Shown here piece by piece: positions 1-15,469 of a stretch of DNA of 15,469 nt; position 1 is the stretch's first letter, and every line of letters starts with the position of its first letter. A program made the translations under genes and the position numbers. The stretch comes from a virus: UHGV virus genome UHGV-1756799. One strand, written 5' to 3'. The notes under the pieces were generated by a model, which saw only the letters and a list, made by a program, of their open reading frames with translations, made no database searches and was not told the origin of the DNA.

Positions 1-115
1 AGAAAAAATAACGTTCACCACCGACCTCTGTCAGATCGATTTCCCAGAGCACCACCTGGGCTGACTGAGTGAGGCGTGTCGTCTCATGATGTGTTTCCTG
101 TGGAATATCCTGCAT
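1..115 (-). CDS. L: Minor tail protein L, N-terminal 38 codons only (gene continues past the window start)
   Basis: Minus-strand ATG at 115-113 preceded by GGAGG; translation MQDIPQETHHETTRLTQSAQVVLWEIDLTEVGGERYFF closely matches the N-terminus of lambda gpL as I recall it; lies directly after M as in lambda. Confidence 0.85.
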   Translation of the reverse strand, partial: MQDIPQETHHETTRLTQSAQVVLWEIDLTEVGGERYFF

Positions 116-124
116 CAGAGCCTC

Positions 125-454
125 CTATGCCACGACCTGTTCAAAATCTGCCGTTATGGTTACCCACAACGCCCCCACGCTTGCCGACCATTTACGACAA
201 ACCACCCTGATCGGCTTCCAGTCATAAGGTGGCGTCCACTGAAATGCGCGGACGCCACCGTGCCGTTCCAGAAAGGCTTTTAAAGATGGGTGTTCACATT
301 TACGAACACGTATCGTCACGCTGTAAGTCGACAACTGGTTATTCAGTCCCGCCGCACGACGCTGTTCATAACCATCGCCAAGCTTCACTGTCACCACTTT
401 CGGCTCTGATACCACATTCATATCCGGGCGCACTTTCCAGTGAAACGTCTCCAT
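125..454 (-). CDS. M: Minor tail protein M
   Basis: 109-aa ORF, same length as lambda gpM, with recognisable similarity along its length (GDGY, HGG, WTPPY, AxFEQVV motifs); start overlaps the H stop as TAATG. Confidence 0.9.
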   Translation of the reverse strand: METFHWKVRPDMNVVSEPKVVTVKLGDGYEQRRAAGLNNQLSTYSVTIRVRKCEHPSLKAFLERHGGVRAFQWTPPYDWKPIRVVCRKWSASVGALWVTITADFEQVVA

Positions 455-3400
455 TACCGATATGCTCCACTTAACCGACCACCATCACGGGCCTGCTGTT
501 GCATAAAGTCCGCTGCCGCTTTTTTCCCGAGGTCATAAACCGCCTTCAGGGCAGCCGGACCTATCTGCCCGTTCGTGCCATCGTTATTGATCTCGATGTT
601 GTACTGCGGGGAAAACATCGCCATACCTGAACCCCCAATATCCGCCACAACCCCCAGCTTACCGTCAGCACCACGACGCAATGGCAGAATGGCTTCAGGT
701 CCCGCTTCCCCCATCACACCCGCGCCTTTTGCAAAAGCAAAAAACGTCGGACGGTTAACCACCGTGCCACTGTAACGACTCAAATCAGCAGACTGATAAA
801 TCCCCCCATTGGCATTCAGGGAAAGGCTGCTGAGATCAAATCCCAGCACACTGCCAATCCCTTTTATCGATTTCATCATGGTTGCCTGCGCCAGGATTTT
901 CGCCATATCTGACAGCACAGAAGAGGTGAAGGATTTGAAATTGAGTTTGCCGGTAGTGACAAAAGTTGCCAGGCCATTTCCCATGTTGCTGAAGGCTGAC
1001 GAGAACACCTGTTCTGCTGTTCCTGCCGTATTATCTGCATCCACGGTAAAATCCTGAAATGCACGCAGGACTCCGTTTTTCCAGTTACCCTGCACAACTT
1101 CAAGCTGTTGCCAGTAACGGCGATTCTCATTCAGTTGTCGGTTCAGGCTCTCCGTCAGCGCCTGCTCGGCCTTTCTGTAGTCATCCGTGTTATATGTTCC
1201 TTTCTGCTCACTATCCCGCCTCAACTGCTCCAGCTGTTGCTGGTATTTCTGGCGAAGACTCAGTTGTACCTGATATCGCTGCCGCTGCTGATCACCCATA
1301 CCCACCGTGGCGATATCCAGGTCATGTTGCTGACGCTGAGCGCGCTCTTCTTCAGCCAGTTGACTGGTCAGCTGAATTGTTTTTTTCTTCAGCTCGTTGA
1401 GTGCCGTCTGTTTCTGAAGCTCCTGCTGTTTTACATCCAGCAGCGTCAGTGCCTGAATCAGTTCATCTTTACGGGCCAGCACACTCTTTTCATCTGCCGT
1501 CAGTTTTTTCCCGTCCAGGTCGCTGATGCGCTGCTGCAGAGCCAGAAGCTGTTTATGCGCTTCTGTCATCCTTTCCGTGGCAATGCCTGCTGACTGTCTG
1601 GCAGCAGCAATCTGTCCTTCCACCTGTGCCTGTTGCTGACTGTACTGCAGCAATAACCGGGTGGCCTCATCATTACGGGGTTCGCGTGTTTTTTTCTTAC
1701 CGGATGCCAGGGCTTTCTCGTAACGTTCATTTTCACGTTGTATCGCTGCATCCCTGACAGCCTGATCGGCGTACTGCATGGAATTAATACGCGCAATTTC
1801 ACGCTGATGTCGTGCTGCTTCCGTTTCATTCATCCGGTTCAGTGCAGCATTTTCAGCATTACGTCGTTTCTGTTGCTCCTGATAATTCCGCTCTGCCTGC
1901 TCTTTTGCATCCTGCAAATCCTTCTGGCGTTTTTTCTCCTGAAGATCGTTAAGACGCTGCTGATCGTATTCAACCTGAGAAGATGATGCCGTCCAGGGGA
2001 GTCTTTTCGCCCGCGACACTTTCTCCTGTAAAGCGGCAATCTGTTCATCCAGCGAGTCTTCACGACCAATATTCATGGCCGCATCCCAGAAACGACTCCA
2101 CAAATCAGACAGATACTTCAGCGTACTGCCAAGCGCATTGAGGTTATTATCAATATCCGCAGTACGCCGACCGGTTTCCTCTGCCAGTGCAGACATGGCT
2201 ATCCGTGCAGCATCACTGGACCGTCCCTGATCCCCAAGGACACGTATCTGCTCAAGCTGAGTGGCAGTAAGAAAATGCAGCTCATTGTCCAGAGCCTTCG
2301 CGGCATTTACAGGATCATCCTTCAGCCGCTTAAACTGATTTATGGTATCGCTGACCGACTGGCCAACCGATCGCTCCATCTGTGCGGCAGCTCTCGCCAC
2401 CATACCGATATCGTTTCCACGAAATGCACCACTCCCCACCACCTGAGCCAGCGCACCGGCTGCAGCATGTTGCGTGATACCATTCCCGGAAATAGCACGA
2501 CTGAGCGTCCACAGCTGCCCGGCAGTGACTCCGGCATAATGCCCCGTCAGCGACAACTGGCGGTTAAATTCTTCCCCCTCCTTCTGACCGTCATACCAGG
2601 CTTTACCCAGACCATAGACGGACGCGGCAATACCGCCAATAACCCCGCCAAGCATCATGCCTTTCGGTGACATCAGAGTGTCTATCCATCCGGCACGGTT
2701 AGCCAGCGTTATCCCGGATCCCCTCAGCGCCCCTAAATTGCCGCGGGCCAGTTCACCTATCAGAACGCCAATCTCCTGGCGGGCCGCTGCACTTTTCAGA
2801 CCCAGCGAATGCGTGGCTTTTCCTGCCTGCTCCATTTTGCGGATATACACTTCTGCAGCACTGCTTACCCCCAGCTGGGCAGCCTTAGCACGAAGCAACT
2901 CAGAAGAAGAAAGATTCTGGCGGGTTGCCTGCTCTTTAAGCTGACGGATAAACGCCACTTTCTGTCGGGTAGCCTCTTCCTCAGCCTGCGTAAGAACACG
3001 GGTTTTCGCCGTAACCTCAGAAATCAGCGCCAGATAATCCTGCTGACCAATCCCGCCACTGTTTCTGGCCTGTCGGATCTGCTGCTGAATACGCTGTAAT
3101 TCCTGCAGCCCCGCACTGGCCTGTTTCACACTGTCAATCTGACGATAAAACGCGGCAGCCGCTTTATCCTGAGCCTCCGCCAGAGCCATGGCCTGCGCCT
3201 GTTCCTCGCGCATTTTCTGGCTCAGTGCCTCCATACGCTGGCGGGTTTGCTCCACCTCGCGGGCCATGCGTTCATGAGCCTGTGCGCTCTTCTCCACCGT
3301 CTGCGCATGGACGGATGCGGCTGTTGCAGCCGAAGAAGCCGCCTGCATTGTCTGCCGGGCGGCCTGAGTCTGACGCTCCATAAAACGCTGCATACGGGCA

Positions 3401-3519
3401 GAAGACCGTTCTGCATCGCTGGCTGCACCATTCAGAAGGTTTTTGATACGGGGAATTTCATTTTTAAACTCTGCCGCATCAATCCCCAAATCAATGACCA
3501 GGTTGGCTATCTGGTCCAT
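454..3519 (-). CDS. H: Tail tape measure protein (lambda gpH-like), about 1021 aa
   Basis: Very long ORF rich in Q/A/E/R coiled-coil sequence with a Gly-rich hydrophobic segment; the track start at 3549 is TTG, so I chose ATG at 3519 (MDQIANLVIDLGIDAAEF, matching the lambda gpH N-terminal pattern) preceded by GGAGGTG. Confidence 0.9.
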   Translation of the reverse strand: MDQIANLVIDLGIDAAEFKNEIPRIKNLLNGAASDAERSSARMQRFMERQTQAARQTMQAASSAATAASVHAQTVEKSAQAHERMAREVEQTRQRMEALSQKMREEQAQAMALAEAQDKAAAAFYRQIDSVKQASAGLQELQRIQQQIRQARNSGGIGQQDYLALISEVTAKTRVLTQAEEEATRQKVAFIRQLKEQATRQNLSSSELLRAKAAQLGVSSAAEVYIRKMEQAGKATHSLGLKSAAARQEIGVLIGELARGNLGALRGSGITLANRAGWIDTLMSPKGMMLGGVIGGIAASVYGLGKAWYDGQKEGEEFNRQLSLTGHYAGVTAGQLWTLSRAISGNGITQHAAAGALAQVVGSGAFRGNDIGMVARAAAQMERSVGQSVSDTINQFKRLKDDPVNAAKALDNELHFLTATQLEQIRVLGDQGRSSDAARIAMSALAEETGRRTADIDNNLNALGSTLKYLSDLWSRFWDAAMNIGREDSLDEQIAALQEKVSRAKRLPWTASSSQVEYDQQRLNDLQEKKRQKDLQDAKEQAERNYQEQQKRRNAENAALNRMNETEAARHQREIARINSMQYADQAVRDAAIQRENERYEKALASGKKKTREPRNDEATRLLLQYSQQQAQVEGQIAAARQSAGIATERMTEAHKQLLALQQRISDLDGKKLTADEKSVLARKDELIQALTLLDVKQQELQKQTALNELKKKTIQLTSQLAEEERAQRQQHDLDIATVGMGDQQRQRYQVQLSLRQKYQQQLEQLRRDSEQKGTYNTDDYRKAEQALTESLNRQLNENRRYWQQLEVVQGNWKNGVLRAFQDFTVDADNTAGTAEQVFSSAFSNMGNGLATFVTTGKLNFKSFTSSVLSDMAKILAQATMMKSIKGIGSVLGFDLSSLSLNANGGIYQSADLSRYSGTVVNRPTFFAFAKGAGVMGEAGPEAILPLRRGADGKLGVVADIGGSGMAMFSPQYNIEINNDGTNGQIGPAALKAVYDLGKKAAADFMQQQARDGGRLSGAYR

Positions 3520-4218
3520 AACGCACACCTCCGGAAATACCTTCCCCAAGATGCATCAGTTCTTCGTCCGTTCGCTCCGGTATCCCGTTCTCTTCCGGTA
3601 AAAGGCTGAAATCAGCCACCGCAGCATCACTGCTACCGGACACCATTCTCACGATCAATGCCTTCAGCGAGGCAAACTGCGCATCCATCCACACATCACT
3701 GAAGCTCTGCATCCGGAAATAATCGCCCCACTCACCAAGCTCAGTGGCCGACATTTCCGACAGCATCCGCCGCCAGTCTGCCCGCCGGAACTCCCGGGCA
3801 AGCCGCATGACAAACTGCATTTCCCGCGTCAGGACTTTTCCGGCGTCAGCACCTCATGCTCCAAATCCCCGGCATTCTCAATGACTCCCATACCGCTCAG
3901 CGACAGAACCATCTCCGCCCCCGCTCCCAGGGCATCATACGACCATGTTGTAATAACGGATGCGCAAAGCGTCTCAACATCCTGAGACTGTTCCGCATTC
4001 CACAGTGAGCGGGAAACCAGCCAGGCATTGATATCCATCCCCATCCGCAGAAAAGCAATCTGTCGTTCAGCCTCCGGCAGTTCTCCCTCTTCGGCATCAA
4101 ACTTTGCCGTTCGCTGCTGAACAAACGCCAGATATTCAATTCTCTGCAGCCCGGACAGCTCACTGAGCACCACGGACTGCTTTTCATAATTAAACGTGCC
4201 CTGTTTCAGAAACATCAT
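3491..4218 (-). CDS. T: Tail assembly chaperone G-T fusion made by programmed -1 ribosomal frameshift near the end of G
   Basis: The T reading frame (3491-3853) is open and overlaps the 3' end of G in the -1 frame with no credible independent RBS; a slippery-like heptamer GGAAAAG (minus strand, plus coordinates 3835-3841) sits 2 codons before the G stop. G/GT frameshifting is conserved across long-tailed phages. Confidence 0.7.
3829..4218 (-). CDS. G: Tail assembly chaperone G
   Basis: Translation from ATG at 4218 (MMFLKQGTF...SELSGLQRIEYLAF) resembles lambda gpG; strong RBS GGTGGAG upstream; the track start at 4257 is TTG and runs through the V terminator hairpin, so I rejected it. Confidence 0.85.
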   Translation of the reverse strand: MMFLKQGTFNYEKQSVVLSELSGLQRIEYLAFVQQRTAKFDAEEGELPEAERQIAFLRMGMDINAWLVSRSLWNAEQSQDVETLCASVITTWSYDALGAGAEMVLSLSGMGVIENAGDLEHEVLTPEKS

Positions 4219-4231
4219 GTTCTCCACCTGC

Positions 4232-4255
4232 AAAAAAGCCCCGGATAACCGGGGC
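4232..4255 (-). terminator. Intrinsic terminator or attenuator between V and G
   Basis: Minus-strand GCCCCGG-TTAT-CCGGGGC hairpin followed by TTTTTT, immediately after the V stop (4276) and before the G RBS. Confidence 0.6.
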
Positions 4256-4275
4256 AAATGATGAGTATCGTCCTG

Positions 4276-5019
4276 TTAACCTGCGGCGCTGACAGCCACC
4301 GCAGCCACTGCCACAAAATCGCCGTCAGAAGTCATGCCCACAATGCTGACACTGCCCTGCTTCACGCCTTTCACCGTGGCCACAAGCCCGTTCAGGGTCA
4401 CCGTGGCAGTCTGTGGATCTGTCGAATGCACACTGATCGCTTTGTCACTGGCTCCGTCAGGTTTTACTGTAAAGGTCAGCGTGGTGGTTGCTCCCACTTT
4501 TACACTGGCAGATGCCGGTGCCACCGTCAGCCCGGTAACGCTCACTGTTTCAGTGCCTTCCTCTGCCAGATACGGACGCCCCACACCGCTGATTTTCACT
4601 GTGCGGGTCATCACGTCTTTTGAGGCAATGGTTTTACCCAGTGAGCTCAGCCAGCCACGGAAAACATCAACAGTGCCGTTGGGATATTTGATACGAAACG
4701 CGCAGACTTCACCGGAGTCGAACAACTGAACCAGTTTTTTCTGCCCGCTGTCACCCGGACGCCAGGCCAGCGTCGCCGAAGTATCACCGACGGATTTCTG
4801 CCCCTGGGTTGTCGTTTTCCAGTCTGCATCTTCATCATCGAGATAAGTGTCATCTTCTGCATCAGCGGTCATTTCGCCAGGTTGCAGATCCTTCACCATC
4901 GCAAGACGCAGCCAGTCAGTGTCCGATAAAGGGTTCGCAAACGCATCGCCCTTGCCGGTGTACATCCAGAACGTCGTTCCCGCACCTTTCGTTTTTGCCA
5001 GTGGATTTGGTGTGGTCAT
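4276..5019 (-). CDS. V: Major tail protein V with C-terminal Ig-like domain
   Basis: Translation resembles lambda gpV (PNP..KGAGTT, LDDEDADW, FRGW) with a Thr/Val-rich Big_2-like C-terminus; the track start at 5025 is GTG, so I chose ATG at 5019 preceded by AAGGAGGTG. Confidence 0.9.
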   Translation of the reverse strand: MTTPNPLAKTKGAGTTFWMYTGKGDAFANPLSDTDWLRLAMVKDLQPGEMTADAEDDTYLDDEDADWKTTTQGQKSVGDTSATLAWRPGDSGQKKLVQLFDSGEVCAFRIKYPNGTVDVFRGWLSSLGKTIASKDVMTRTVKISGVGRPYLAEEGTETVSVTGLTVAPASASVKVGATTTLTFTVKPDGASDKAISVHSTDPQTATVTLNGLVATVKGVKQGSVSIVGMTSDGDFVAVAAVAVSAAG

Positions 5020-5030
5020 TGCCACCTCCT

Positions 5031-5444
5031 TTAATTCGTGTACGTGATCTGGTACGTGATTTCCGCCATCGCCCAGGTGGCCATCTCATTATCACGTTGA
5101 TAGTTAAAACCGAGAGGGATCAGGGTGTCGATGAGTCCGGAAAGTGCCGGTATATCATTCAGGGCCGGGAAAATGGTGCTCTCCATCCACATATCCAGCT
5201 CTGAATCCGGTGCCTGTGCCCGGATGAAGACAGCAATATGCAGAACAGCCTGCCAGTCATCTTCATCCGTCATTTTTCCGGTGTACTGAGCATCACTCAG
5301 CCACACCGCCACGGCAGGCAGTTCCTGCGCATCAATAAATGCCGGAAGCCCGTCAAAAAACGTGGCGCTGTCTCCACACTGTTCCCGAAGGCGTGCCAGT
5401 ACGGCCTGGCGGATTTGTGTATGTCGGTTCATCGGGTCAGCCAT
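5031..5444 (-). CDS. U: Tail terminator protein U
   Basis: Similar to lambda gpU (ATFFDG.PA..D...PAVAV, DIPALS); the true start may be ATG at 5432 (MNRHTQIRQAVLARL, ATGA overlap with the Z stop) rather than 5444. Confidence 0.85.
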   Translation of the reverse strand: MADPMNRHTQIRQAVLARLREQCGDSATFFDGLPAFIDAQELPAVAVWLSDAQYTGKMTDEDDWQAVLHIAVFIRAQAPDSELDMWMESTIFPALNDIPALSGLIDTLIPLGFNYQRDNEMATWAMAEITYQITYTN

Positions 5445-6007
5445 AACCTCAGTTGTTGTTTCAGTGCATACCCCAGCTGTTTCGGCATTTCCGCAGCAAT
5501 AATGCGGTCGCGGGCATCTTCAAATGCCTGTGTCAGCGGTCCGGACAGCGGGACTTTCACCACATCAATGGGGTAACGATTTTTGCCATCAATACGCCGC
5601 ATCACATGCCAGCGACCATTCGCCAGTTGCTGAATAAACGCATCCCGGAAAAGATATTTACCCACCTTCAGCACACTGCCACGGTACTGCAGTTTTCCAC
5701 CACGCCGGGCCAGTCTGACCCGGGCTGTCCCCAGCTTAATAGCGGGCAGATTGCCCCGGTTAACGCGGATCCTGGCCGTCATTTTTCCTGACGGACTGGC
5801 TTTAAACACCCGGACACGCTGACGTACCAGTTTCAGGGGGATCCCTTTCACCTGGTTATCTCCCGCAACGGTATTCCCGGCAACCTGCCGGGTGGCGACC
5901 GAGACCGCTTTCTGTGCCACACGGTTTATCGCCCATGCGCTGGCCTGTGGCACCATACGGGTATCAAGGCTGTTCAGATTACGGATGGCATTCTCAAGCC
6001 CCTTCAT
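5429..6007 (-). CDS. Z: Tail completion protein Z
   Basis: 192 aa, the same length as lambda gpZ, in the syntenic position; RBS AGAGGTG 5 nt upstream of the ATG. Confidence 0.8.
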   Translation of the reverse strand: MKGLENAIRNLNSLDTRMVPQASAWAINRVAQKAVSVATRQVAGNTVAGDNQVKGIPLKLVRQRVRVFKASPSGKMTARIRVNRGNLPAIKLGTARVRLARRGGKLQYRGSVLKVGKYLFRDAFIQQLANGRWHVMRRIDGKNRYPIDVVKVPLSGPLTQAFEDARDRIIAAEMPKQLGYALKQQLRLWLTR

Positions 6008-6018
6008 CCCACACCTCT

Positions 6019-6294
6019 TTACTCAATAAAGATCATTGGCTTACCGTTAAAACGTTCATGCCGTGTGACCGTCCATTGTTGTCCGTCATAAACAACGCGA
6101 TCCCCGCGCCGTGGGCGGTATCCCGAAGAAAACACCACCAGAGAGACCGCAGGTCCGGACAGAGCATTCAGCTCTGCCAGTGTTTCTCCCGGGATCACAG
6201 TCATATCGACATCATTAATCGAGGCTGTCTTTCCCATCTTTCTGACCGTGATAGCATCCATACGCGCTGCCAGCCGGGAAAAGGGATCAGACAT
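6019..6294 (-). CDS. Head-tail joining protein, lambda FII-like (often annotated in Gifsy-type prophages as ATP-binding sugar transporter-like)
   Basis: 91-aa ORF between the head and tail modules; the RRGD motif and small size resemble gpFII; ATGTCTGA overlap with the upstream gene stop suggests coupling. Assignment is by position and weak resemblance only. Confidence 0.5.
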   Translation of the reverse strand: MSDPFSRLAARMDAITVRKMGKTASINDVDMTVIPGETLAELNALSGPAVSLVVFSSGYRPRRGDRVVYDGQQWTVTRHERFNGKPMIFIE

Positions 6295-6610
6295 TGAGTT
6301 TTACCGGCACTTCTTCTGCACTGGTTCCGGCATCTGCCCAGACAACCCCGACCAGCGGATCAGAGCCGCTGTTAGTCAGCTGAACTTTTCCGGACTTCAG
6401 ATAAACCTTCTTACCCGTTTTCATGTCATCCGTTTTCAGCTTAGGCAGCATAAACACACCTTCGGTCATGCCGTCGCCTGTTTCACCCTGTGGAATATCG
6501 GTCAGCGCCACCGCAAAAACATCGCCCACCTGCACCAGATCTCCGCTGCTGATGGCTGCACTGGCAACAATCGCCACCGTTTTTCCTTCTTCTACAAAAT
6601 TCTTTGCCAT
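6287..6610 (-). CDS. DUF2190-like small head-associated protein (possible decoration or head-completion protein)
   Basis: About 107 aa from ATG at 6610 (MAKNFVEEGKTV...) with RBS GGAGA; the track start at 6655 is TTG and overlaps terminator hairpins. Family assignment is from memory of prophage capsid-adjacent genes. Confidence 0.5.
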   Translation of the reverse strand: MAKNFVEEGKTVAIVASAAISSGDLVQVGDVFAVALTDIPQGETGDGMTEGVFMLPKLKTDDMKTGKKVYLKSGKVQLTNSGSDPLVGVVWADAGTSAEEVPVKLNV

Positions 6611-6653
6611 AACTGTCTCCGCACAGCCCCGTTCAGGGGCTGATTTCAGGTAC

Positions 6654-6673
6654 AAAAAAAGCCCTTACGGGCC
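6654..6673 (-). terminator. Intrinsic terminator downstream of the capsid gene (partial or leaky)
   Basis: Minus-strand GCCC-GTAA-GGGC followed by TTTTTTT, 24 nt after the capsid stop; a second GC hairpin (CAGCCCC-N5-GGGGCTG, 6625-6643) follows. Confidence 0.5.
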
Positions 6674-6696
6674 ATCAGAGTTGTTGTCTGCGACGT

Positions 6697-8655
6697 TTAC
6701 GCCGTACATTTCACCAGACCGCGGTGATCAACTGGCGCGACACCGGCGTCAATACGCACTTTCGTTGTCACGCCATCCACACTGAAGCCCTCCATCTGAT
6801 CAATATATGGCGTATCCACACCGTTGAGATAAGCCACTTCAATCGTATCGGAGCCTTTTGACGCAGCCAGGTAGAAGGTGGTCTGGCTGTTATCATCAAG
6901 ACGAGGCTCTGCAATAACGGTCGCAAAATCTTTCACCGGGTTAATAATACCGGCGTTAATGTCAGCCCCCTTGACACTTGAGGAGCGAATGACCTGGTTA
7001 GCAACAGACTCCATCGCCGTCGGTACCAGTACGAACGCAGGACGAATATTCAGATGACGCTCCCCCTCTTTCTGAACGCGCATCAACTGGCGGGCTTTAT
7101 CCAGCGATGCCACGTCCATTGCAGCGCTCTCCAGTACGTTTGCATGTTTCGCTTTATCGAACAGACTTACATTATCTGTGGAGATTTTCGGGTTAGACGT
7201 CAGAATGGCATAAACCAGATCGGCAATAGTGGATTTCGCCGCACGGCCCAGTTTCATCGGGACATCGGTCAGCATATTCAGATCATCATTGATAATGGCC
7301 TGACGGGTGATACTGAACAGCTCGCCATAGGTCGCCAGTGCAATAGTGGCCTGTTTATCTCCGGTGGTGACGTATTTATATTCCGCCCCTTCACGCACCT
7401 GACGTAGAGCACTGAAGCCCCCCATACCCACACGATGGGCAATTTTAAAATCAGACAACTGACCTTTCCGCGTCCACTGTTCATAGGTTTCAGGGGCATC
7501 TTCCCAGCCCTGCAGAATGGCTTTGTTCGCAACATCCAGCAGAATATTACCGAAGTCAGACGTACTGTGTGTGAACGCCGCACCGACCATCTGCATCGGG
7601 TTATAACCGGAAACCCCAATACCCCGTTCAGTTAGTGACATACGGGCATATTCACGCAGGGTCATCCCGTTGTAGACATTATCACGTTCGGTTTTTTCAA
7701 ATCCGGCACGCGCCATCAGCGCCTGGCGAATCCCGTCCCCCACAAAATTACCGTTACCGGCATAAATATGAGCCGGGGTATTTTTATTGGATGGCGTGGA
7801 CTCGCGCCCCATCTCGTTCAACAGCTTTTCACGGGCCTGCTCCAGCGAACATTCAGGATCGGCAAGACACTGGGCCTGCAGCGTCTGATAACGCCCGCCA
7901 AACATGGCAAACAGATCATTAATACCGTTTACACGCGCTTTTTGCTCTGCCAGTACCTGCGCACGGATACTGTTTTCATCCACCACGGGTGCTGCTGCCT
8001 GCACTGGCGTCCGGGAGGCTGCAGGTTCATCATCCTGTACGCGTGGAGCACTGTTGCGTGGCGGAGTAATCATGTTTCGAATGGATTCCGGCATCTTTTT
8101 AAATTCCTCTGTACGTTTTGACTGAATACATGCCATTGCCTTAACGGCTGGTGTCACCTGATCAGCAAATCCCTGTGCCAGACATTCGGCACCGGACATC
8201 CAGGTCTCATCCGCCAGCATGGCAGCAATTTCATCGGTGGTTTTCCCGGTTTTCTGTGCATAAGCGGGTAACAGAACCGCCTCAACTTTATCGAGCAGGT
8301 CGGCATAGGTGCGCATGTCCTCCGCATCACCGCCCGTAAAGCCAAATGGTTTATGAATCATCATGAAGGAGTTTTCCGGCATAATGACCGGGTTTCCCAC
8401 CATCGCAATGACCGACGCCATTGACGCCGCCACACCGTCGACATAAACGGTAATGGACGCACCATGTGTTTTCAGTGCATTAAAAATGGCGATGCCTTCA
8501 AAGACATCGCCACCCGGTGAATTAATATGGAGATTAATGTGGGTGATATCGCCCAGTGCATTCAGATCACTGATAAACTGCTTCGCTGTAACACCCCAGA
8601 AACCAATCTCGTCATAAATATAAATATCCGCGTCACTCTGGTGACCTGCCTGCAT
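6697..8655 (-). CDS. Prohead protease (ClpP/S49-like) fused to HK97-fold major capsid protein, about 652 aa
   Basis: N-terminal part has ClpP-like sequence (IYIYDEIGFWG...INSPGGDVFEG...MMIHKP); the long C-terminal part looks like a phage major capsid protein; single continuous ORF. The track start at 8916 is TTG and overlaps the portal by 248 nt; I chose ATG at 8655, 13 nt after the portal stop. Confidence 0.8.
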   Translation of the reverse strand: MQAGHQSDADIYIYDEIGFWGVTAKQFISDLNALGDITHINLHINSPGGDVFEGIAIFNALKTHGASITVYVDGVAASMASVIAMVGNPVIMPENSFMMIHKPFGFTGGDAEDMRTYADLLDKVEAVLLPAYAQKTGKTTDEIAAMLADETWMSGAECLAQGFADQVTPAVKAMACIQSKRTEEFKKMPESIRNMITPPRNSAPRVQDDEPAASRTPVQAAAPVVDENSIRAQVLAEQKARVNGINDLFAMFGGRYQTLQAQCLADPECSLEQAREKLLNEMGRESTPSNKNTPAHIYAGNGNFVGDGIRQALMARAGFEKTERDNVYNGMTLREYARMSLTERGIGVSGYNPMQMVGAAFTHSTSDFGNILLDVANKAILQGWEDAPETYEQWTRKGQLSDFKIAHRVGMGGFSALRQVREGAEYKYVTTGDKQATIALATYGELFSITRQAIINDDLNMLTDVPMKLGRAAKSTIADLVYAILTSNPKISTDNVSLFDKAKHANVLESAAMDVASLDKARQLMRVQKEGERHLNIRPAFVLVPTAMESVANQVIRSSSVKGADINAGIINPVKDFATVIAEPRLDDNSQTTFYLAASKGSDTIEVAYLNGVDTPYIDQMEGFSVDGVTTKVRIDAGVAPVDHRGLVKCTA

Positions 8656-8668
8656 CCTGAACCAGGAA

Positions 8669-10177
8669 TTATTCTTCGGACTGGTCGTCGGTGTGCTGCG
8701 GCTCCTGTCGTTTCGTTGCGGCACTGCTGCCTCCTTTATCACTGGCCGGATCGGTATCAAATACCAGATCCAGCTTGCGGTTTTCATCAATTTCGGCCTT
8801 GCGCCGACGTTTGACATCATCCGGATTACGACCACCTGCACGTACCCAGTCTGATTCTGTCGCCGCTCCACCACGAATCTGAATTTTCCAGGCCTCAGCC
8901 TCCTTAACAGGGTCAATCCACGGCATCACCGGTCCGGAATACACCGCGGTATACAGTGAAGAACGATCAAGATCGCGGGGTAGCCTGATAACACCGGATG
9001 CCACAGCCTGTTTCAGCCAGGCACGATACATCGGGCGGGTGACGGCACCAATAAACCAGTCCTGCAGGATCAGGTAGCCATCAGTGGATTCAACCAGCTC
9101 CTGACGCTGGGCGCTGTAAGTGCCGTTATAGTTGCGTGCCGTACTGGAAAAACTCAGACGACTGCCCGCCGCCACGGCACGCAACTGACCATTACGAAAA
9201 GTTTCAAGGTTAGGATTGGGACGATCCGACTTCACCATTCCGATTTCTTCGCCGGGTTTCAGATCGTCGTAAATAATGCCTGGCTGAATGGTAAGCTCGC
9301 GTTCATTCTCCTTGCTGCCATTACCATCCGGTTCATAGCTCTGCCCGTCGCCTTTCCGGATGTACATCCCCAGAGCAGCGGCGATCCTTGCTGCAGTCAG
9401 CTCAGAATCTTCATACTCTTTCAGGGCACTGAGGCGGATCAGCACACCGGACAACAAAGACGTCCCGCGCATCTGGTGCAGACGGCGAACAAATTTAAGA
9501 TGCAGCATTCGCTCTGCATCCACTTCTTTGGTTTCCATCTGCCGCCCGGATACGGGACGGCTTTTATACACCAGATATTTTTCGGGACGCCCCCAGTCAT
9601 CAACAAACACGCCCTGATTCAGCCTGTTGCTCTCATCACTGGTCATGGGAATAAAGTCCGGCTCGAGCGCCTCCAGCCAGAAATGAACACCGGCAGAAGG
9701 CGTCAGGCTGTTTATGCGCCCGGAAACCATCTGGGCAAACACCTCACCATCGCGCAGCCAGGTACGCAGCATCAGACGTTCCAGCATCGGACGGGTAAAC
9801 TGCCCGGTGACTTCCGGACTGACAGACCATTCACTCCATCGGGTGCGTATCTCCGCTGCCAGATCACGGGCAATGGCCCCATTGCGTAATACCGGATGTG
9901 GCTCGACAATAATCCCGTTTTTCCCCACCACCCGTTCTTCCAGCTTGTCAAATACACCAATAACCAGATCGTGGTTGTTATCAAGGTAACGGGCCTGCTC
10001 ACGTAACGACACGGCCCCGTACTGGCTTAACTGGTCGGCAGTTCGGTTTTCCCGCCGGGCTTTGTGTGTCCGTGTCGTTTTTACGGCCTCATAAGCCTGG
10101 ATCACCGCACGGGAACGCAGCCTTGCCGCTTTCCATCCTGGTGAAAAAACGCCAATCACATCATCAAGAATTGCCAT
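8669..10177 (-). CDS. Portal protein
   Basis: About 502-aa ORF between the gpW-like gene and the protease-capsid gene; the track start at 10249 is GTG; ATG at 10177 (MAILDDVIG...) overlaps the gpW-like stop as TGATG. Size, position and acidic C-terminus fit a portal. Confidence 0.8.
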   Translation of the reverse strand: MAILDDVIGVFSPGWKAARLRSRAVIQAYEAVKTTRTHKARRENRTADQLSQYGAVSLREQARYLDNNHDLVIGVFDKLEERVVGKNGIIVEPHPVLRNGAIARDLAAEIRTRWSEWSVSPEVTGQFTRPMLERLMLRTWLRDGEVFAQMVSGRINSLTPSAGVHFWLEALEPDFIPMTSDESNRLNQGVFVDDWGRPEKYLVYKSRPVSGRQMETKEVDAERMLHLKFVRRLHQMRGTSLLSGVLIRLSALKEYEDSELTAARIAAALGMYIRKGDGQSYEPDGNGSKENERELTIQPGIIYDDLKPGEEIGMVKSDRPNPNLETFRNGQLRAVAAGSRLSFSSTARNYNGTYSAQRQELVESTDGYLILQDWFIGAVTRPMYRAWLKQAVASGVIRLPRDLDRSSLYTAVYSGPVMPWIDPVKEAEAWKIQIRGGAATESDWVRAGGRNPDDVKRRRKAEIDENRKLDLVFDTDPASDKGGSSAATKRQEPQHTDDQSEE

Positions 10178-10395
10178 CAGAACCTCGCCAGCCGGTACCC
10201 GGGATGCCCCCGTCGTCGTGTAATCAGAGCCGCAAGGCGGCGCTCCCACTCCTGCCGTCCCTGCCGGATCTCAGATAAGTTTTCCATGGTCATCTGCTGA
10301 CCATTAAAGGTGACGGATTTTCCGTCCAGCACCGCCATTTCAGCTTCCGTATAACGCTGAATCATGGCTTCGATATCATTCTGGTTCATAACCAT
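10177..10395 (-). CDS. W: gpW-like head-tail joining protein
   Basis: About 70-aa ORF ending in RRRGHPGY, resembling the C-terminus of lambda gpW (QRRRGPAGF); the second ATG at 10389 overlaps the terminase stop as ATGA. Confidence 0.7.
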   Translation of the reverse strand: MVMNQNDIEAMIQRYTEAEMAVLDGKSVTFNGQQMTMENLSEIRQGRQEWERRLAALITRRRGHPGYRLARF

Positions 10396-12488
10396 CCTCC
10401 GGAAGTCAGCCAGGGGTTAACATCGTCAGTTACTGTTTTCTTCCGTTTTTGTTTTTTAACAGGCGTGGATACCGGTTCCGGTGTGGGTGACGGTTCGGTA
10501 CTGTCCGGGACACACTCCAGCCAGGTTTCCCGGCTCGCCCACTCCGGTGCATCCGGCCAGCGGATCTTTTCGTATCCATGCAGAATGACCAGAGCCTCGG
10601 CATACACCATCAGGTCAAAAGCTTCGTTGGCACCGCGACCCGGCTTACTCCATTTCCCGTCACTGCTCCGCTCTTCATACGTCAGTTCGTCGTAAAACCA
10701 GCTCCCCAGCCAGTCAGGGAAATGCACATAGCCGGGACCTGGCGAGTCACGCCATAACGCGTTATTCACCCGGTCTTTCAGGGCATCCGTCTGAAGAAGC
10801 CAGAGCGGCACATCACCTGCGGCCTGCGCCCGGCGGCCCGTTCGTCCGGTGTTATCAGGGAATGTACGGCTGATCAGTTTTGCGCGCCGGATGCTGTCAC
10901 CCTTAAACAGGTAAATACGTTTACCAAGGCCATCACGACGGCAACGACGCCAGAATTTATAGGCATTATCAGTGACCCCGTCTTCACCGCCGGAGTCCAC
11001 CGCCATTGCCATCAGTCGCATTTGTTGAGAAGGATCGGAGGCCAGCGGCCAGCTTTTATGAAAAACATCCGTCAGCAGGACATCCCAGTCTTCCGGATAG
11101 CTGGCCGGATCAATTCGCTGGCTCTCCCCGTCGCTGTCACCGCGCAATGACTGCGTGATGTTGTAACGATCAATAATCCAGCGTTCGCCACGGCTGCCAT
11201 AGCCCGTTACCTGAACCACAAAACGGCGATGACGTCCCGCCTGCACATCCACTGTCGCCACAAGGAAATTAACGCCATCCGGCACACTGCGGGAAGGAAC
11301 TGGCTCTGCCCGCTGCTCAAGCAATTCACTTTTTCGTTGCTCCATGCTGGCGCGGGGAAGATAAGGTAATCCCCAGTCGGTATTGATAACCGTCTTGAGT
11401 GTCTCTTCACTTCCGGTTGTCTCGTATTCCTGTTCTGCAGTAAGCAGTTTGTAAACGAGTTGCGAGAGTGTCTGATAAGCAGCTGCCGGACCCTCCATCC
11501 AGAATGACGCAATACGTGAACGCCGGGGATCACCATAACGACTGCCATCTGCATTGATGGATTCACCATCCCGTAACCAGACCCCACGTCCGTTCAGCTC
11601 GCGTTTTTGTTCAGGCAAAATCCGTCCTGAACAGGAAGGACACTGAATATAAGCCGCCTCACTTGCCAGCACAGGATCGGCAATATCACGGAAACCAGCA
11701 ACCACATCGCCGCAGGGCTGAAAATACTCACCACAGTGTGGACAGGGCCAGTACCAGCGACGGCGATCGCCACGGTTATAGAGCGACAGGATCCCCGTGG
11801 TTGGTGGAGCCTCATGCGGTGAAGTCCGTCGCCATTTCACATCCTTCACATCCCTGCCGGGGGAACTCTCCACCAGCGTCATACCACTGGACATAAATGT
11901 GGTGGTACGTTTTGAGGCAAGAGAGAAGGCATCCCCCTCACCATCAATATCTTCCGGAAAACGGTCATAATCCGTCAGCGCCACGCATTTATAATCTGAT
12001 GAAGACATGATATTGACTGACGGCCAGCCGATTTTCAGGTAGTTGCCAGCAAGGAATGTTCTGTCATAAACGTTGTTGTCATTTTTGTTCGGACTCAGGC
12101 GACTGACCACTTCCGGGCTGACGCGAAACGTTCTGGCGAGTCGTTTTTTGGAGTGTTCGCGGGCTTTTTCCTCCGTCATCTGAATGATCAGCATATCAGC
12201 AGGATCGCAAATCACGTTGTAAATCACCCAGCCGTCAATCAGGCCGATAGTCTTGCCGGTTCGTGCCGGGCCAACAAATATCACTGCGTCGTATTCACGC
12301 GAGGCCAGGCAGTTCATAGGCTCAATAACATACGGTGCCACCAGCGGATCCCACGGGACTGAGTTCCCTGCCCCCATAGGCACCCGCATATACTGAGCAA
12401 CGGCATCAGCAACCCGCATTCGTCTCGGTGCGCGAAGGATATAACCTGAATCGGTTCGTGCTGCCTTTGCGGTTTCCTGATTCAGCAT
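10386..12488 (-). CDS. Terminase large subunit, GpA family
   Basis: 700-aa ORF with Walker A-like VGPARTGKT, a CPHCGE zinc-finger-like motif as in lambda gpA, and acidic nuclease-domain residues; start overlaps the small-subunit stop as TAATG. Confidence 0.9.
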   Translation of the reverse strand: MLNQETAKAARTDSGYILRAPRRMRVADAVAQYMRVPMGAGNSVPWDPLVAPYVIEPMNCLASREYDAVIFVGPARTGKTIGLIDGWVIYNVICDPADMLIIQMTEEKAREHSKKRLARTFRVSPEVVSRLSPNKNDNNVYDRTFLAGNYLKIGWPSVNIMSSSDYKCVALTDYDRFPEDIDGEGDAFSLASKRTTTFMSSGMTLVESSPGRDVKDVKWRRTSPHEAPPTTGILSLYNRGDRRRWYWPCPHCGEYFQPCGDVVAGFRDIADPVLASEAAYIQCPSCSGRILPEQKRELNGRGVWLRDGESINADGSRYGDPRRSRIASFWMEGPAAAYQTLSQLVYKLLTAEQEYETTGSEETLKTVINTDWGLPYLPRASMEQRKSELLEQRAEPVPSRSVPDGVNFLVATVDVQAGRHRRFVVQVTGYGSRGERWIIDRYNITQSLRGDSDGESQRIDPASYPEDWDVLLTDVFHKSWPLASDPSQQMRLMAMAVDSGGEDGVTDNAYKFWRRCRRDGLGKRIYLFKGDSIRRAKLISRTFPDNTGRTGRRAQAAGDVPLWLLQTDALKDRVNNALWRDSPGPGYVHFPDWLGSWFYDELTYEERSSDGKWSKPGRGANEAFDLMVYAEALVILHGYEKIRWPDAPEWASRETWLECVPDSTEPSPTPEPVSTPVKKQKRKKTVTDDVNPWLTSGGWL

Positions 12489-12982
12489 TACTCCTCCTGC
12501 TGTAATTCCTCCTCATCATCCGCACCTGCTTCAGTCACCCGCAGGGCTATCTGATCGCGCAGATCATCAATAATGGACTGAACACGGCTCACAGCGGCAG
12601 GCTGCAGACCGCAGTCACGTTCAAGAATATCCGGTAATGTCTCCAGCACCTGCACGACCGCTTTTGCCCAGATGGCAAACTCCCGTCTGACATCACTGGC
12701 CGGAATGAGTTGTGCCGTTTCCTGTTCGAACTTAAGACGCTCACGTTCAGACTGATACCAGGCTTTGCGCTCATGCGCGTCCATTTCGCCTTCTGCAACC
12801 GGCGGTGGTAATGCCAGAAATGCCGACACAATATCAACCACCCGATAAAGCTTGAGGTTGCTTTCATGCCCCCCTGCAACGGGTAGATTTTGCAGCCTTG
12901 CCGCAGCAGTCTGGCGATGTACACCTGACAATGCCGCCAGTTGACTGATATTCAGCGTCAGATTTTTTAACTCTCGATCCAT
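12488..12982 (-). CDS. Terminase small subunit (Nu1-like), N-terminal HTH
   Basis: 164 aa directly upstream of the large terminase; N-terminal helix-turn-helix-like segment (LNISQLAALSGVHRQTAAARL) and acidic C-terminus; RBS GGAG 5 nt upstream. Confidence 0.75.
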   Translation of the reverse strand: MDRELKNLTLNISQLAALSGVHRQTAAARLQNLPVAGGHESNLKLYRVVDIVSAFLALPPPVAEGEMDAHERKAWYQSERERLKFEQETAQLIPASDVRREFAIWAKAVVQVLETLPDILERDCGLQPAAVSRVQSIIDDLRDQIALRVTEAGADDEEELQQEE

Positions 12983-13085
12983 ACCCGCTCCAGAATGTTT
13001 TAAACATGCATCTTGCGAACAACTTTAGGCAAACGGTGTTAGTGATGAACAAAAAACAATCAGAATCGACACCATAAAAATAAAT

Positions 13086-13116
13086 CCACTGTAATATCAA
13101 TCAATTACAGTAGTGG
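13086..13116. promoter_or_regulatory. Imperfect inverted repeat with an embedded IHF-consensus match (candidate cosB-type terminase/IHF binding region)
   Basis: CCACTGTAAT...ATTACAGTAGTGG inverted repeat; TATCAATCAATTA (13095-13107) fits WATCAANNNNTTR; lies between the GC-rich element and the small-terminase start. Confidence 0.35.
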
Positions 13117-13159
13117 TGATGACGAATAAAATTTCAAAAACTAGCCTTTTTCCGCGACG

Positions 13160-13192
13160 CTCCCGCCCCGTGGCAGGGGCCCCCACCGGGAG
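13160..13192. promoter_or_regulatory. GC-rich nested palindrome, candidate cosN-like terminase cleavage site
   Basis: CTCCCG-CCCC-GTGGCA-GGGG-CCCCCAC-CGGGAG: outer CTCCCG/CGGGAG and inner GCCCC/GGGGC inverted repeats in a sharply GC-rich island inside AT-rich DNA, about 180-210 bp upstream of the terminase small-subunit start, comparable to cos-Nu1 spacing in lambda. Confidence 0.35.
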
Positions 13193-13197
13193 GACCC

Positions 13198-13220
13198 GAC
13201 AGCCTGACAGCCTGACAGCC
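13198..13220. repeat. Tandem direct repeat, about 2.9 copies of the octamer GACAGCCT
   Basis: gacagcct gacagcct gacagcc read directly from the sequence, adjacent to the palindrome. Confidence 0.85.
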
Positions 13221-13356
13221 GTGACGAGCATCTGATACAGCGCTTTACATAATGGCATAGGAATAATTCAGAAGGACATCACAGCATGCCCACACAAATT
13301 AGTGTGAGTGTCCTGTTTCTTCCTACGCACAGGACTGACGAGCATGAGGGGAAAAT

Positions 13357-13524
13357 ATGCGAACCATAAATGCCTCATCTTCAGCAATGCAGCCGGCATC
13401 CGAACAGGACGATATTGTAAATTCACCTAATTACGAGGACATTGCAGTAGTTGAATTGCAGCTCTGTATTAGCCTGACAGTGACAGAATGCGATATTGAC
13501 TCTGTCACAGGTGAAATAGTTTGA
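13357..13524 (+). CDS. Hypothetical small acidic protein, 55 aa
   Basis: Not in the ORF track (below 60 aa). ATG at 13357 with GAGGGG 5 nt upstream; translation MRTINASSSAMQPASEQDDIVNSPNYEDIAVVELQLCISLTVTECDIDSVTGEIV. No homolog recognised; it converges on the 68-aa ORF with only 20 nt between stops and no terminator. Confidence 0.25.
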   Translation: MRTINASSSAMQPASEQDDIVNSPNYEDIAVVELQLCISLTVTECDIDSVTGEIV

Positions 13525-13544
13525 ATGATTAGCAGTTATGGTGC

Positions 13545-13751
13545 TCAGTCAACCACCAGGGAATAATCCTTCGAATTCTTATCGTGCTTCACCAACGCTG
13601 CCTCAATTGCCCTGAATGCTTCCAGAGACACCTGATGTTCTATACATGCAATTACAACATCCGGGTAACTCATAGAAATGGTGCTATTAAGCATATTTTT
13701 TACACGAATCAGATCCAACGAGAGTTCATCAGCAGATTGTTCTTTATTCAT
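13545..13751 (-). CDS. Hypothetical small protein, 68 aa (possibly the counterpart of K-12 Qin ynfO by position)
   Basis: ATG start with GGAG 7 nt upstream; lies between the terminase/cos region and the ydfO-like gene, where K-12 Qin carries a small gene between nohQ and ydfO. I do not recognise the sequence itself. Confidence 0.45.
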
Positions 13752-14051
13752 TTTGTCGCTCCATGCGTTTGCTCGTCATCTAGCGGTTAAAATATTACTT
13801 CAAATCTTACTGCATAAAAGAGGAAAAGTATGAAAGTTTGAGTACATCGACCTTACATACATCTGTCGGTTGCATATCCCTCCTGGATGCCAGCAAGGCT
13901 CAATTTTGTTACGCAATCAACACTATTCATTAAAAACAGGCTTAATATTTGACATAAATCATCAACAAAACACAAAGAGGTCAGACCAGATTAAAACAAT
14001 AAACACGATAATGCAAACTACGCGCCATCGTATCACATGGAAGGTTTACCA

Positions 14052-14462
14052 ATGGCTCAGGCTGCCATTTTTAAAGAAATATTCGATCAAGTGCGTAAAG
14101 ATTTAAACTGTGAATTATTTTATTCTGAGCTAAAACGTCACAATATCTCACTTTATATTTACTATTTAGCCACAGATAATATTCACATTGTGTTAGAAAA
14201 CGACAACATAGTGTTAGTAAAAGGACTCAAAAAGGTTGTAAATGTTAAATTCTCCAGAAACAAACATCTTATAGAGACCTCCTATAATAAGTTGAAATCA
14301 AAAGAAATCACATTTCAACAATACAGGGAAAATCTTGCTAAAGCAGGAGTTTTCCGATGGGTTACAAATATCCAGGAACACCAAAGATATTACTATGCCT
14401 TTGATAACTCATTACTATTTACTGAAAGCATCCAGAAAACTACACAGATCTTACCACGCTAA
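14052..14462 (+). CDS. ydfO: YdfO-like protein (DUF1398 family), prophage moron
   Basis: 136 aa from the second ATG ([11 protein letters not shown]...), which has GGAAGG 7 nt upstream; the first ATG at 14037 lacks an RBS. Matches my recollection of K-12 Qin YdfO and its position next to gnsB and the Nu1-like gene. Confidence 0.6.
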
Positions 14463-14470
14463 ACCATAAC

Positions 14471-14499
14471 GTCCGGCTTCTCTCACTCCTGAGCCGGAC
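14471..14499 (+). terminator. Hairpin downstream of ydfO-like gene (weak candidate terminator)
   Basis: GTCCGGCT-13 nt-AGCCGGAC, 8-bp stem beginning 9 nt after the stop; large loop and no clean T-tract. Confidence 0.3.
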
Positions 14500-14551
14500 T
14501 GCATTGGTTTAATAAAAACCATCAACAATTGTGATTTAGATATTCGGAACC

Positions 14552-14574
14552 ATTCAAATATAACAAAACCCCGT
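14552..14574 (-). terminator. Candidate intrinsic terminator for the gnsB-like gene
   Basis: Minus-strand CCUCG-UUUUUA-CGGGG (one G-U pair) followed by UUUUGUU, about 40 nt after the gnsB-like stop. Confidence 0.4.
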
Positions 14575-14613
14575 AAAAACGAGGTTTATGGATAAATTTT
14601 ATTATTGAATACA

Positions 14614-14790
14614 TCAGATTAAATTAATCTTGACATCATAGCTTTCAAGACCCGTCATTTTTTCCCGTGCGGTAAACTGAATACTGGTAACTTCTTTCCC
14701 GGTCTTTTTCTTAAGTTCAATAATTTTTTTTGTTATATATTCAGAAATATCTGCTTCTGCTTTTGTTTTTAAGTTTTCAATATTCATCAT
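14614..14790 (-). CDS. gnsB: GnsA/GnsB-family protein, 58 aa
   Basis: Not in the ORF track (below 60 aa). Translation MMNIENLKTKAEADISEYITKKIIELKKKTGKEVTSIQFTAREKMTGLESYDVKINLI; the FTAREKMTGLESYDVKI segment matches E. coli GnsA/GnsB as I recall them; RBS AAGAGGAAA upstream. Confidence 0.8.
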   Translation of the reverse strand: MMNIENLKTKAEADISEYITKKIIELKKKTGKEVTSIQFTAREKMTGLESYDVKINLI

Positions 14791-14958
14791 TTCCTCTTTT
14801 AGTCTGTTATGACTTTCCAGTTACACAGTAAGTCGATTATATGGTGCAAACGTGTAAAAGATAAGATGAAACATCGCAATAATCAACATACGATAGTCTA
14901 AATTTTACACAAACAGACAAAGAGAATTTTCCTGAATTATCAATACAATAGCATCAAA

Positions 14959-15189
14959 TCAACTCAAGAGCCTTATTGCTGCTTCCAGAATTTCTTCTGA
15001 AGTAACATGTCGATCCGCGGCTACATAAATGACTTTATGATCTCCGGTCAGAGATGGAAACCCTGCGGCCATTACAGTAAGGTGTGTTTTTTCGCCATTT
15101 GGATATTCACGCATGATGGTGTTAACTCCAGTCATCGCTGGCACTACCACTGCTGGTTCAGAGTTAAAAAAAACTATGATTTTTTTCAT
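14959..15189 (-). CDS. Small protein, 76 aa, upstream partner of the gnsB-like gene (YmcE/YnfN-like by position and size)
   Basis: ATG at 15189 (MKKIIVFFNSEP...); the track start at 15231 is TTG and lies in the terminator. Same strand as and 168 nt upstream of gnsB, like ymcE-gnsA and ynfN-gnsB in K-12. Weak RBS; sequence not recognised with certainty. Confidence 0.5.
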   Translation of the reverse strand: MKKIIVFFNSEPAVVVPAMTGVNTIMREYPNGEKTHLTVMAAGFPSLTGDHKVIYVAADRHVTSEEILEAAIRLLS

Positions 15190-15233
15190 GATGTTACCGT
15201 AGTATGTGAGTATCCATCGAATAGATACCAAGC

Positions 15234-15253
15234 AAAAAAGCTCCCGAAGGAGC
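15234..15253 (-). terminator. Intrinsic terminator (possibly bidirectional)
   Basis: Minus-strand GGCUCC-UUCG-GGAGC(C) with a UUCG tetraloop followed by UUUUUU; the plus-strand side is also followed by T-rich sequence. Immediately after the stop at 15262 of an upstream minus-strand ORF. Confidence 0.6.
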
Positions 15254-15261
15254 CTTCATTT

Positions 15262-15418
15262 TCACTTTTTTAAATCCAACGACAGACGGCTGGCATTTAA
15301 GTATTGTGAAATATTATCAAATGTAATCATCATTGATTTACAAAAGATACATTTTGCCCCGAAAGGATTCATGTCAGAAACATCAAAAGATGATGTTCTA
15401 TACTGGGAACCATGACAA
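15262..15418 (-). CDS. C-terminal fragment of an unidentified minus-strand gene (truncated by the contig end)
   Basis: Open minus-strand frame ending at TGA 15262-15264 (...YRTSSFDVSDMNPFGAKCIFCKSMMITFDNISQYLNASRLSLDLKK) and followed by a strong terminator; the track ORF 15262-15447 extends into adapter sequence, so only 15262-15418 is genomic. Confidence 0.25.
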
Positions 15419-15469
15419 CTGTCTCTTATACACATCTCCGAGCCCACGAGACATCTCAGGATCTCGTAT
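15419..15469 (+). other. Illumina Nextera (Tn5 mosaic-end) adapter read-through; not biological sequence
   Basis: CTGTCTCTTATACACATCTCCGAGCCCACGAGAC, then an 8-nt index-like ATCTCAGG, then ATCTCGTAT (start of the P7 sequence). Confidence 0.95.

Follow-up and report, generated by a model that had tools for sequence, protein, structure and literature searches.

What is the sequence in which this contig ends, where does the genome proper stop, and what has happened to the gene that is interrupted there? The window (the whole stretch of 15,469 nucleotides that was analysed) is, judged by its sequence, a Qin-like lambdoid prophage of E. coli. An earlier note on this DNA had read its final 51 bases as adapter plus an index-like sequence of non-genomic origin. 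Both an exact match to the Nextera adapter and a break of homology at the adapter bear this out. We conclude that the terminal 51 bases (50 if a C shared with the genome is counted as genomic) are almost certainly Illumina Nextera adapter that escaped trimming and entered the assembly.

Adapter architecture of the last 51 bases

The window terminates in ...GGGAACCATGACAA, followed by CTGTCTCTTATACACATCT CCGAGCCCACGAGAC ATCTCAGG ATCTCGTAT. These four blocks were assigned as follows:

15419-15437, + strand: Tn5 mosaic end CTGTCTCTTATACACATCT, exact match, the start of the Nextera read-through adapter
15438-15452, + strand: CCGAGCCCACGAGAC, complement of the Nextera Read 2 / i7-side adapter GTCTCGTGGGCTCGG, exact match
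15453-15460, + strand: i7 sample index ATCTCAGG, 8 bases, Illumina N715 according to the published index list
15461-15469, + strand: ATCTCGTAT, the first 9 bases of the P7 flow-cell sequence complement ATCTCGTATGCCGTCTTCTGCTTG, exact match, cut by the contig end

All 51 bases are identical to the i7-side adapter of Nextera / Nextera XT as it appears in Read 1 read-through, with genomic DNA directly adjoining. The only departure from the full Nextera i7 adapter is that 9 of the 24 P7 bases are present, the contig ending there. The 34-base constant part (CTGTCTCTTATACACATCT plus CCGAGCCCACGAGAC) is quoted in 120 papers, for example as a target for Nextera adapter trimming, and a published library design contains the same 34 bases with the P7 complement ATCTCGTATGCCGTCTTCTGCTTG further along. 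For N715 the index read is ATCTCAGG and the primer carries CCTGAGAT (PMC7589761 Appendix B). The 8 bases in the window are more than "index-like": ATCTCAGG reads as a true catalogue index in read-through orientation. Neither the TruSeq adapter nor the Nextera Read 1 side adapter was present in the window, left end included.

When the whole window was searched for the pattern CTGTCTCTTATACACATCTCCGAGCCCACGAGAC-N8-ATCTCGTAT, a single match was found, at 15419-15469 (+) and without a mismatch. In 200 dinucleotide-preserving shuffles the Nextera pattern never matched, even with 3 mismatches allowed. The pattern specifies 43 adapter bases, for which about 4e-22 chance matches are expected in the window, and 43/43 match. 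A natural phage or bacterial sequence with the look of an adapter would have to account for these figures (43/43 bases, 0/200 shuffles) and also for the fact that homology to all relatives halts exactly there. Chance resemblance was ruled out by the match statistics together with the homology break, and we give it no weight at all.

The beginning of the tail could also be read as the edge of a real Tn5-derived element (e.g. EZ-Tn5 or mini-Tn5) inserted in ymcF, with the contig stopping at its mosaic end. Tn5 transposase recognises the 19-base mosaic end as a functional end, and the mosaic end lies directly against genomic DNA; it is an engineered derivative of the IS50/Tn5 terminal inverted repeats, and Tn5 transposase joins it to target DNA. 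However, the mosaic end is followed by the Read 2 primer site, then by a catalogue i7 index and the first part of P7, with no cargo or IS50 sequence. A Read 2 primer site, an i7 index and P7 occur together only on sequencing-library molecules. The mosaic end is itself a synthetic hybrid, which differs from both natural IS50 ends, outside (CTGACTCTTATACACAAGT) and inside (CTGTCTCTTGATCAGATCT). Its sole copy on both strands of the window is the one at 15419-15437 (+), no second mosaic end was found on either strand with up to 3 mismatches, and comparison with IS50/Tn5 revealed neither a transposase gene nor a second end in the window sequence. The terminal 51-mer, moreover, was not found in any of 5,426 complete E. 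coli genomes, 28 Gb in total. A genuine Tn5/IS50 or mini-Tn5 insertion, extremely improbable in our estimate, was rejected because library adapter and not transposon-internal sequence follows the mosaic end.

Position at which genomic sequence stops

Window 1-15419 aligned in one piece and with 100.0% identity to the chromosome of E. coli 118UI (NZ_CP032515.1:1827127-1842545), and the same stretch was unbroken and 100% identical in at least 10 complete E. coli chromosomes, 118UI included. The last 2 kb of the window were 99.9% identical to phage Tritos. Alignments to the E. coli chromosomes and to Tritos all terminated at window 15419. In a three-way alignment identity was perfect through ...CATGACAAC, after which the references read ACACGGGCATCTAAAGTG... 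and the window TGTCTCTTATAC.... Beyond 15419 the reference genomes run on as ACACGGGCATCT..., and the window diverges from all of them at 15420. The exact 35-mer across the junction had no match in the viral, genome and metagenome contig collections. Identity of the terminal sequence, the break in homology and the true continuation in the reference genomes were observed directly.

Base 15419, a C, is common to genome and adapter, and genome-supported sequence reaches 15419. Since this C agrees with the genome as well as with the first adapter base, the junction is either 15418/15419 or 15419/15420, an ambiguity of one base. The adapter had earlier been placed at 15419-15469; these coordinates match ours, with the reservation that their first base also fits the real genome. 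The contig is to be trimmed at 15418/15419, and inferences about a junction, start codon, promoter or protein N-terminus from 15420 on are invalid. A -35-like hexamer, TTGTCA at 15418 (-), is located on genomic junction bases; on that strand the sequence upstream of the hexamer consists entirely of adapter.

The reference genomes extend beyond 15419, in agreement with the earlier statement that the prophage continues past the window. Its presumed course into the lysis cassette was also found in the references, where the cassette follows about 0.6 kb on, after the 5′ end of ymcF and cspI. According to the reference annotation the right-hand genes of the window are ybcW-like, DUF1398 (ybcV-like), gnsB, ynfN, ynfR and ymcF, all on the - strand except DUF1398. 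Past the junction come the remaining 31 bases of ymcF (its 5′ end) and then cspI; about 0.6 kb past it are rzpQ (DUF2514, Rz-like), the rrrQ lysozyme gene, ydfR and the essD holin gene, and after essD the references carry cspB, cspF and the Q antiterminator gene. Because the genes are on the - strand, the lysis cassette is located upstream of the window genes in the late operon, not downstream. From right to left the window comprises a moron island, the cos/terminase region, and the head and tail genes, with its left end in the gene for minor tail protein L. Over window 13400-14481 identity to phage lambda is about 89.5%, the matching part being its extreme right arm (J02459.1 47023-48089, reverse strand); this match places the cos-proximal region of the window and confirms the late-operon orientation on the - strand.

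The truncated ymcF/ynfQ gene

The junction falls within an open reading frame of 61 aa at 15262-15447 (-), which consists of two parts:

15262-15419, - strand: genuine 3′ part of ymcF/ynfQ, 51 codons plus stop and 2 bases of the preceding codon
15420-15447, - strand: spurious adapter-coded 5′ end of the frame, with the GTG start, VGSEMCIRD and the first base of the junction codon S

The junction codon S occupies 15420-15418 (-). Codons 1-10 (VGSEMCIRDS, GTG start included) are adapter-derived, and codons 11-61 plus the stop are identical to annotated ymcF/ynfQ. The frame had been dismissed as artefactual, which is correct for its start and first 10 codons and incorrect for the remaining 51 codons and stop, which are real ymcF/ynfQ. 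Instead of a 61-aa ORF, a 5′-truncated ymcF/ynfQ fragment should be recorded.

The 158 bases at window 15262-15419 (-) show 100% identity to the 3′ portion of the annotated 189-base ymcF of 118UI (WP_071524604.1) and of Tritos. At the protein level the C-terminal 51 aa of the frame are identical to WP_071524604.1, full-length YmcF being 62 aa. The complete gene would span window 15262-15450 (-), and the contig end deletes its first 31 bases. Missing are 11 codons with an ATT start, encoding residues ITNHIHFRCPC with the first Cys pair. The reference gene is translated as ITNHIHFRCPCCHGSQYRTSSFDV...LDLKK*, and the frame at 15262-15447 (-) as VGSEMCIRDSCHGSQYRTSSFDV...LDLKK*. The truncation strips the first Cys pair (CPCC) from YmcF, an apparent CxxC...CxxC protein. 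In NCBIfam the true YmcF reached only 17.8 bits with a CxxC zinc-binding family, below the cut-off of 37, and the chimeric frame gave no match.

The gene is that of Qin-like lambdoid E. coli prophages, in which it adjoins cspI; the copy in the window differs in having no true 5′ end, the N-terminal 11 aa and the neighbouring cspI being situated past the contig end. Under PGAP the gene carries either name, ymcF or ynfQ, with the product "cold shock small protein". The literature yielded a single transcriptome paper, which was not relevant, and what is said of the protein's experimental status is based on RefSeq product names only. In the references the true start of ymcF is an ATT located 10 bases past the cspI stop codon, and a GAGG overlaps that stop. 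This region is equivalent to window 15448-15463, had the genome continued. An ATT start near the cspI stop with an overlapping GAGG suggests translational coupling of ymcF to cspI. An ORF finder limited to ATG, GTG and TTG starts would miss the true ymcF start, even with the genome intact.

The exact chimeric 61-aa protein was not on record in the gene-position collection, and the artefact has not visibly spread within that collection. The adapter-coded peptide VGSEMCIRDS is the type of string that pollutes protein databases.

Just 3′ of the ymcF stop codon, and within the annotated 21-aa ynfR, a GC-rich hairpin (GCTCC-CGAA-GGAGC) is present at 15240-15253. A T run comes after it on the - strand, so that it resembles an intrinsic terminator; the scan had flagged it on the + strand only.

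Origin of the adapter tail and its occurrence in other phage records

The order genome, mosaic end, Read 2 complement, i7 index and P7 complement is that of Read 1 on a short insert, so that the junction marks a Tn5 cut made during library preparation. The mechanism of read-through and the cause of the break are what we infer from this arrangement. Tn5 tagmentation would have cut E. coli DNA at 15418/15419, within ymcF/ynfQ, giving a library fragment of less than one read length. Sequenced in the + direction of the window, Read 1 would then have overrun the insert and reported, one after another, mosaic end, Read 2 primer site, N715 i7 index and the start of P7. Adapter trimming was presumably absent or incomplete, and the assembler may have retained the adapter-bearing tip as the contig end with the true path missing or weak in the assembly graph. 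Untrimmed read-through reads generally make tips in assembly graphs, and for such a tip to persist as the end of a contig, the true path has to be absent or weak there.

Weakness of the true path is probably explained by a local dropout of coverage in a low-GC island. An AT-rich island of about 2.4 kb with 29-41% GC covers window ~13750-15418 and runs on to ~16150 in reference coordinates. It lies between the cos/terminase region and the lysis genes and carries ybcW, ybcV (DUF1398), gnsB, ynfN, ynfR, ymcF and cspI. The structural genes have 51-56% GC, against 29-41% in the island at the contig end. Low-GC regions are under-covered in Nextera XT data (PMC6796507). Because the contig ends in this low-GC island and Nextera XT under-covers such regions, local coverage dropout is the most likely reason for the contig break. 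As to why the tail should measure exactly 51 bases, one may speculate that this is the difference between read and insert length, or that it reflects a de Bruijn k of 51.

Another explanation of the break accepts the adapter and places the cause in the source genome, which would differ from the references at or just past 15419 through an IS insertion, a deletion or a second near-identical prophage, and not through low coverage. Lambdoid prophages are mosaic and often have modules in common, a whole-window query finds 2-3 places per genome, and the junction region itself occurs in 2 places in a few genomes. However, of the 2,145 complete genomes with the 600 bases across the true junction, 2,130 carry this stretch unbroken (median one copy, maximum two), and the next 620 bases are single copy too. 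As this 600-base region is contiguous and single copy, there is no natural breakpoint or repeat boundary at 15419; nor would a repeat boundary be expected to fall on a Tn5 cut site. We regard such a difference in the source genome as quite unlikely. The narrower proposal of a real strain difference at ymcF/cspI (for instance an inserted IS or a point of recombination between prophage modules), to which the adapter tip would be no more than an addition, is very unlikely. Even with a true structural difference the 51 bases stay an artefact. A repeat-induced break at the right contig end is likewise unlikely, the region being single copy in nearly all complete genomes.

The left end of the contig (window 1-115) is inside the phage minor tail protein L gene and has no adapter. 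In the best-matching strains the whole-window query found its 2-3 places per genome, and for this reason a repeat in common with co-resident lambdoid prophages probably caused the break on the left.

An adapter at a contig terminus is an ordinary assembly artefact, a textbook case without biological novelty, and the tail is relevant for data hygiene only. Since it remained untrimmed here, the other contig ends of this assembly should probably be screened as well. The 51-mer matched 43 records of the phage collection, mostly at record ends, and the hosts of these phages are unrelated, belonging to Streptococcus, Bacillus, Listeria, Staphylococcus, Pseudomonas, Paenibacillus and E. coli. Adapter copies with an index other than N715 were located at the following positions:

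MT584805.1, ~107535-107585: adapter in phage record
MK327937.1, 110018-110068: adapter in phage record
MZ092003.1, 28015-28065: adapter in phage record
LR597637.1, 29127-29203: adapter in phage record
LR597652.1, 46720-46770: adapter in phage record

When five phage records were aligned, the flanks were unrelated and the two constant adapter segments were invariant; the 8-base slot alone varied (TCCTGAGC, CGTACTAG, TCAACTTG). Invariant segments around a variable index, set in unrelated flanks, form a pattern that reads as the signature of synthetic library sequence. The aligned records go on with GCCGTCTTCTGCTTG and then polyA or polyG. In contrast to these public copies, the one in the window has no such tail.

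Deposited "complete" phage genomes contain the Nextera i7 adapter with full P7, and certain copies lie inside the record. The record of Bacillus phage Tomato has the adapter after an N run, between two pieces of a "DNA polymerase" CDS. In ESSI2_ev239 and Lambda_ev110, annotated hypothetical-protein CDSs extend into the adapter.
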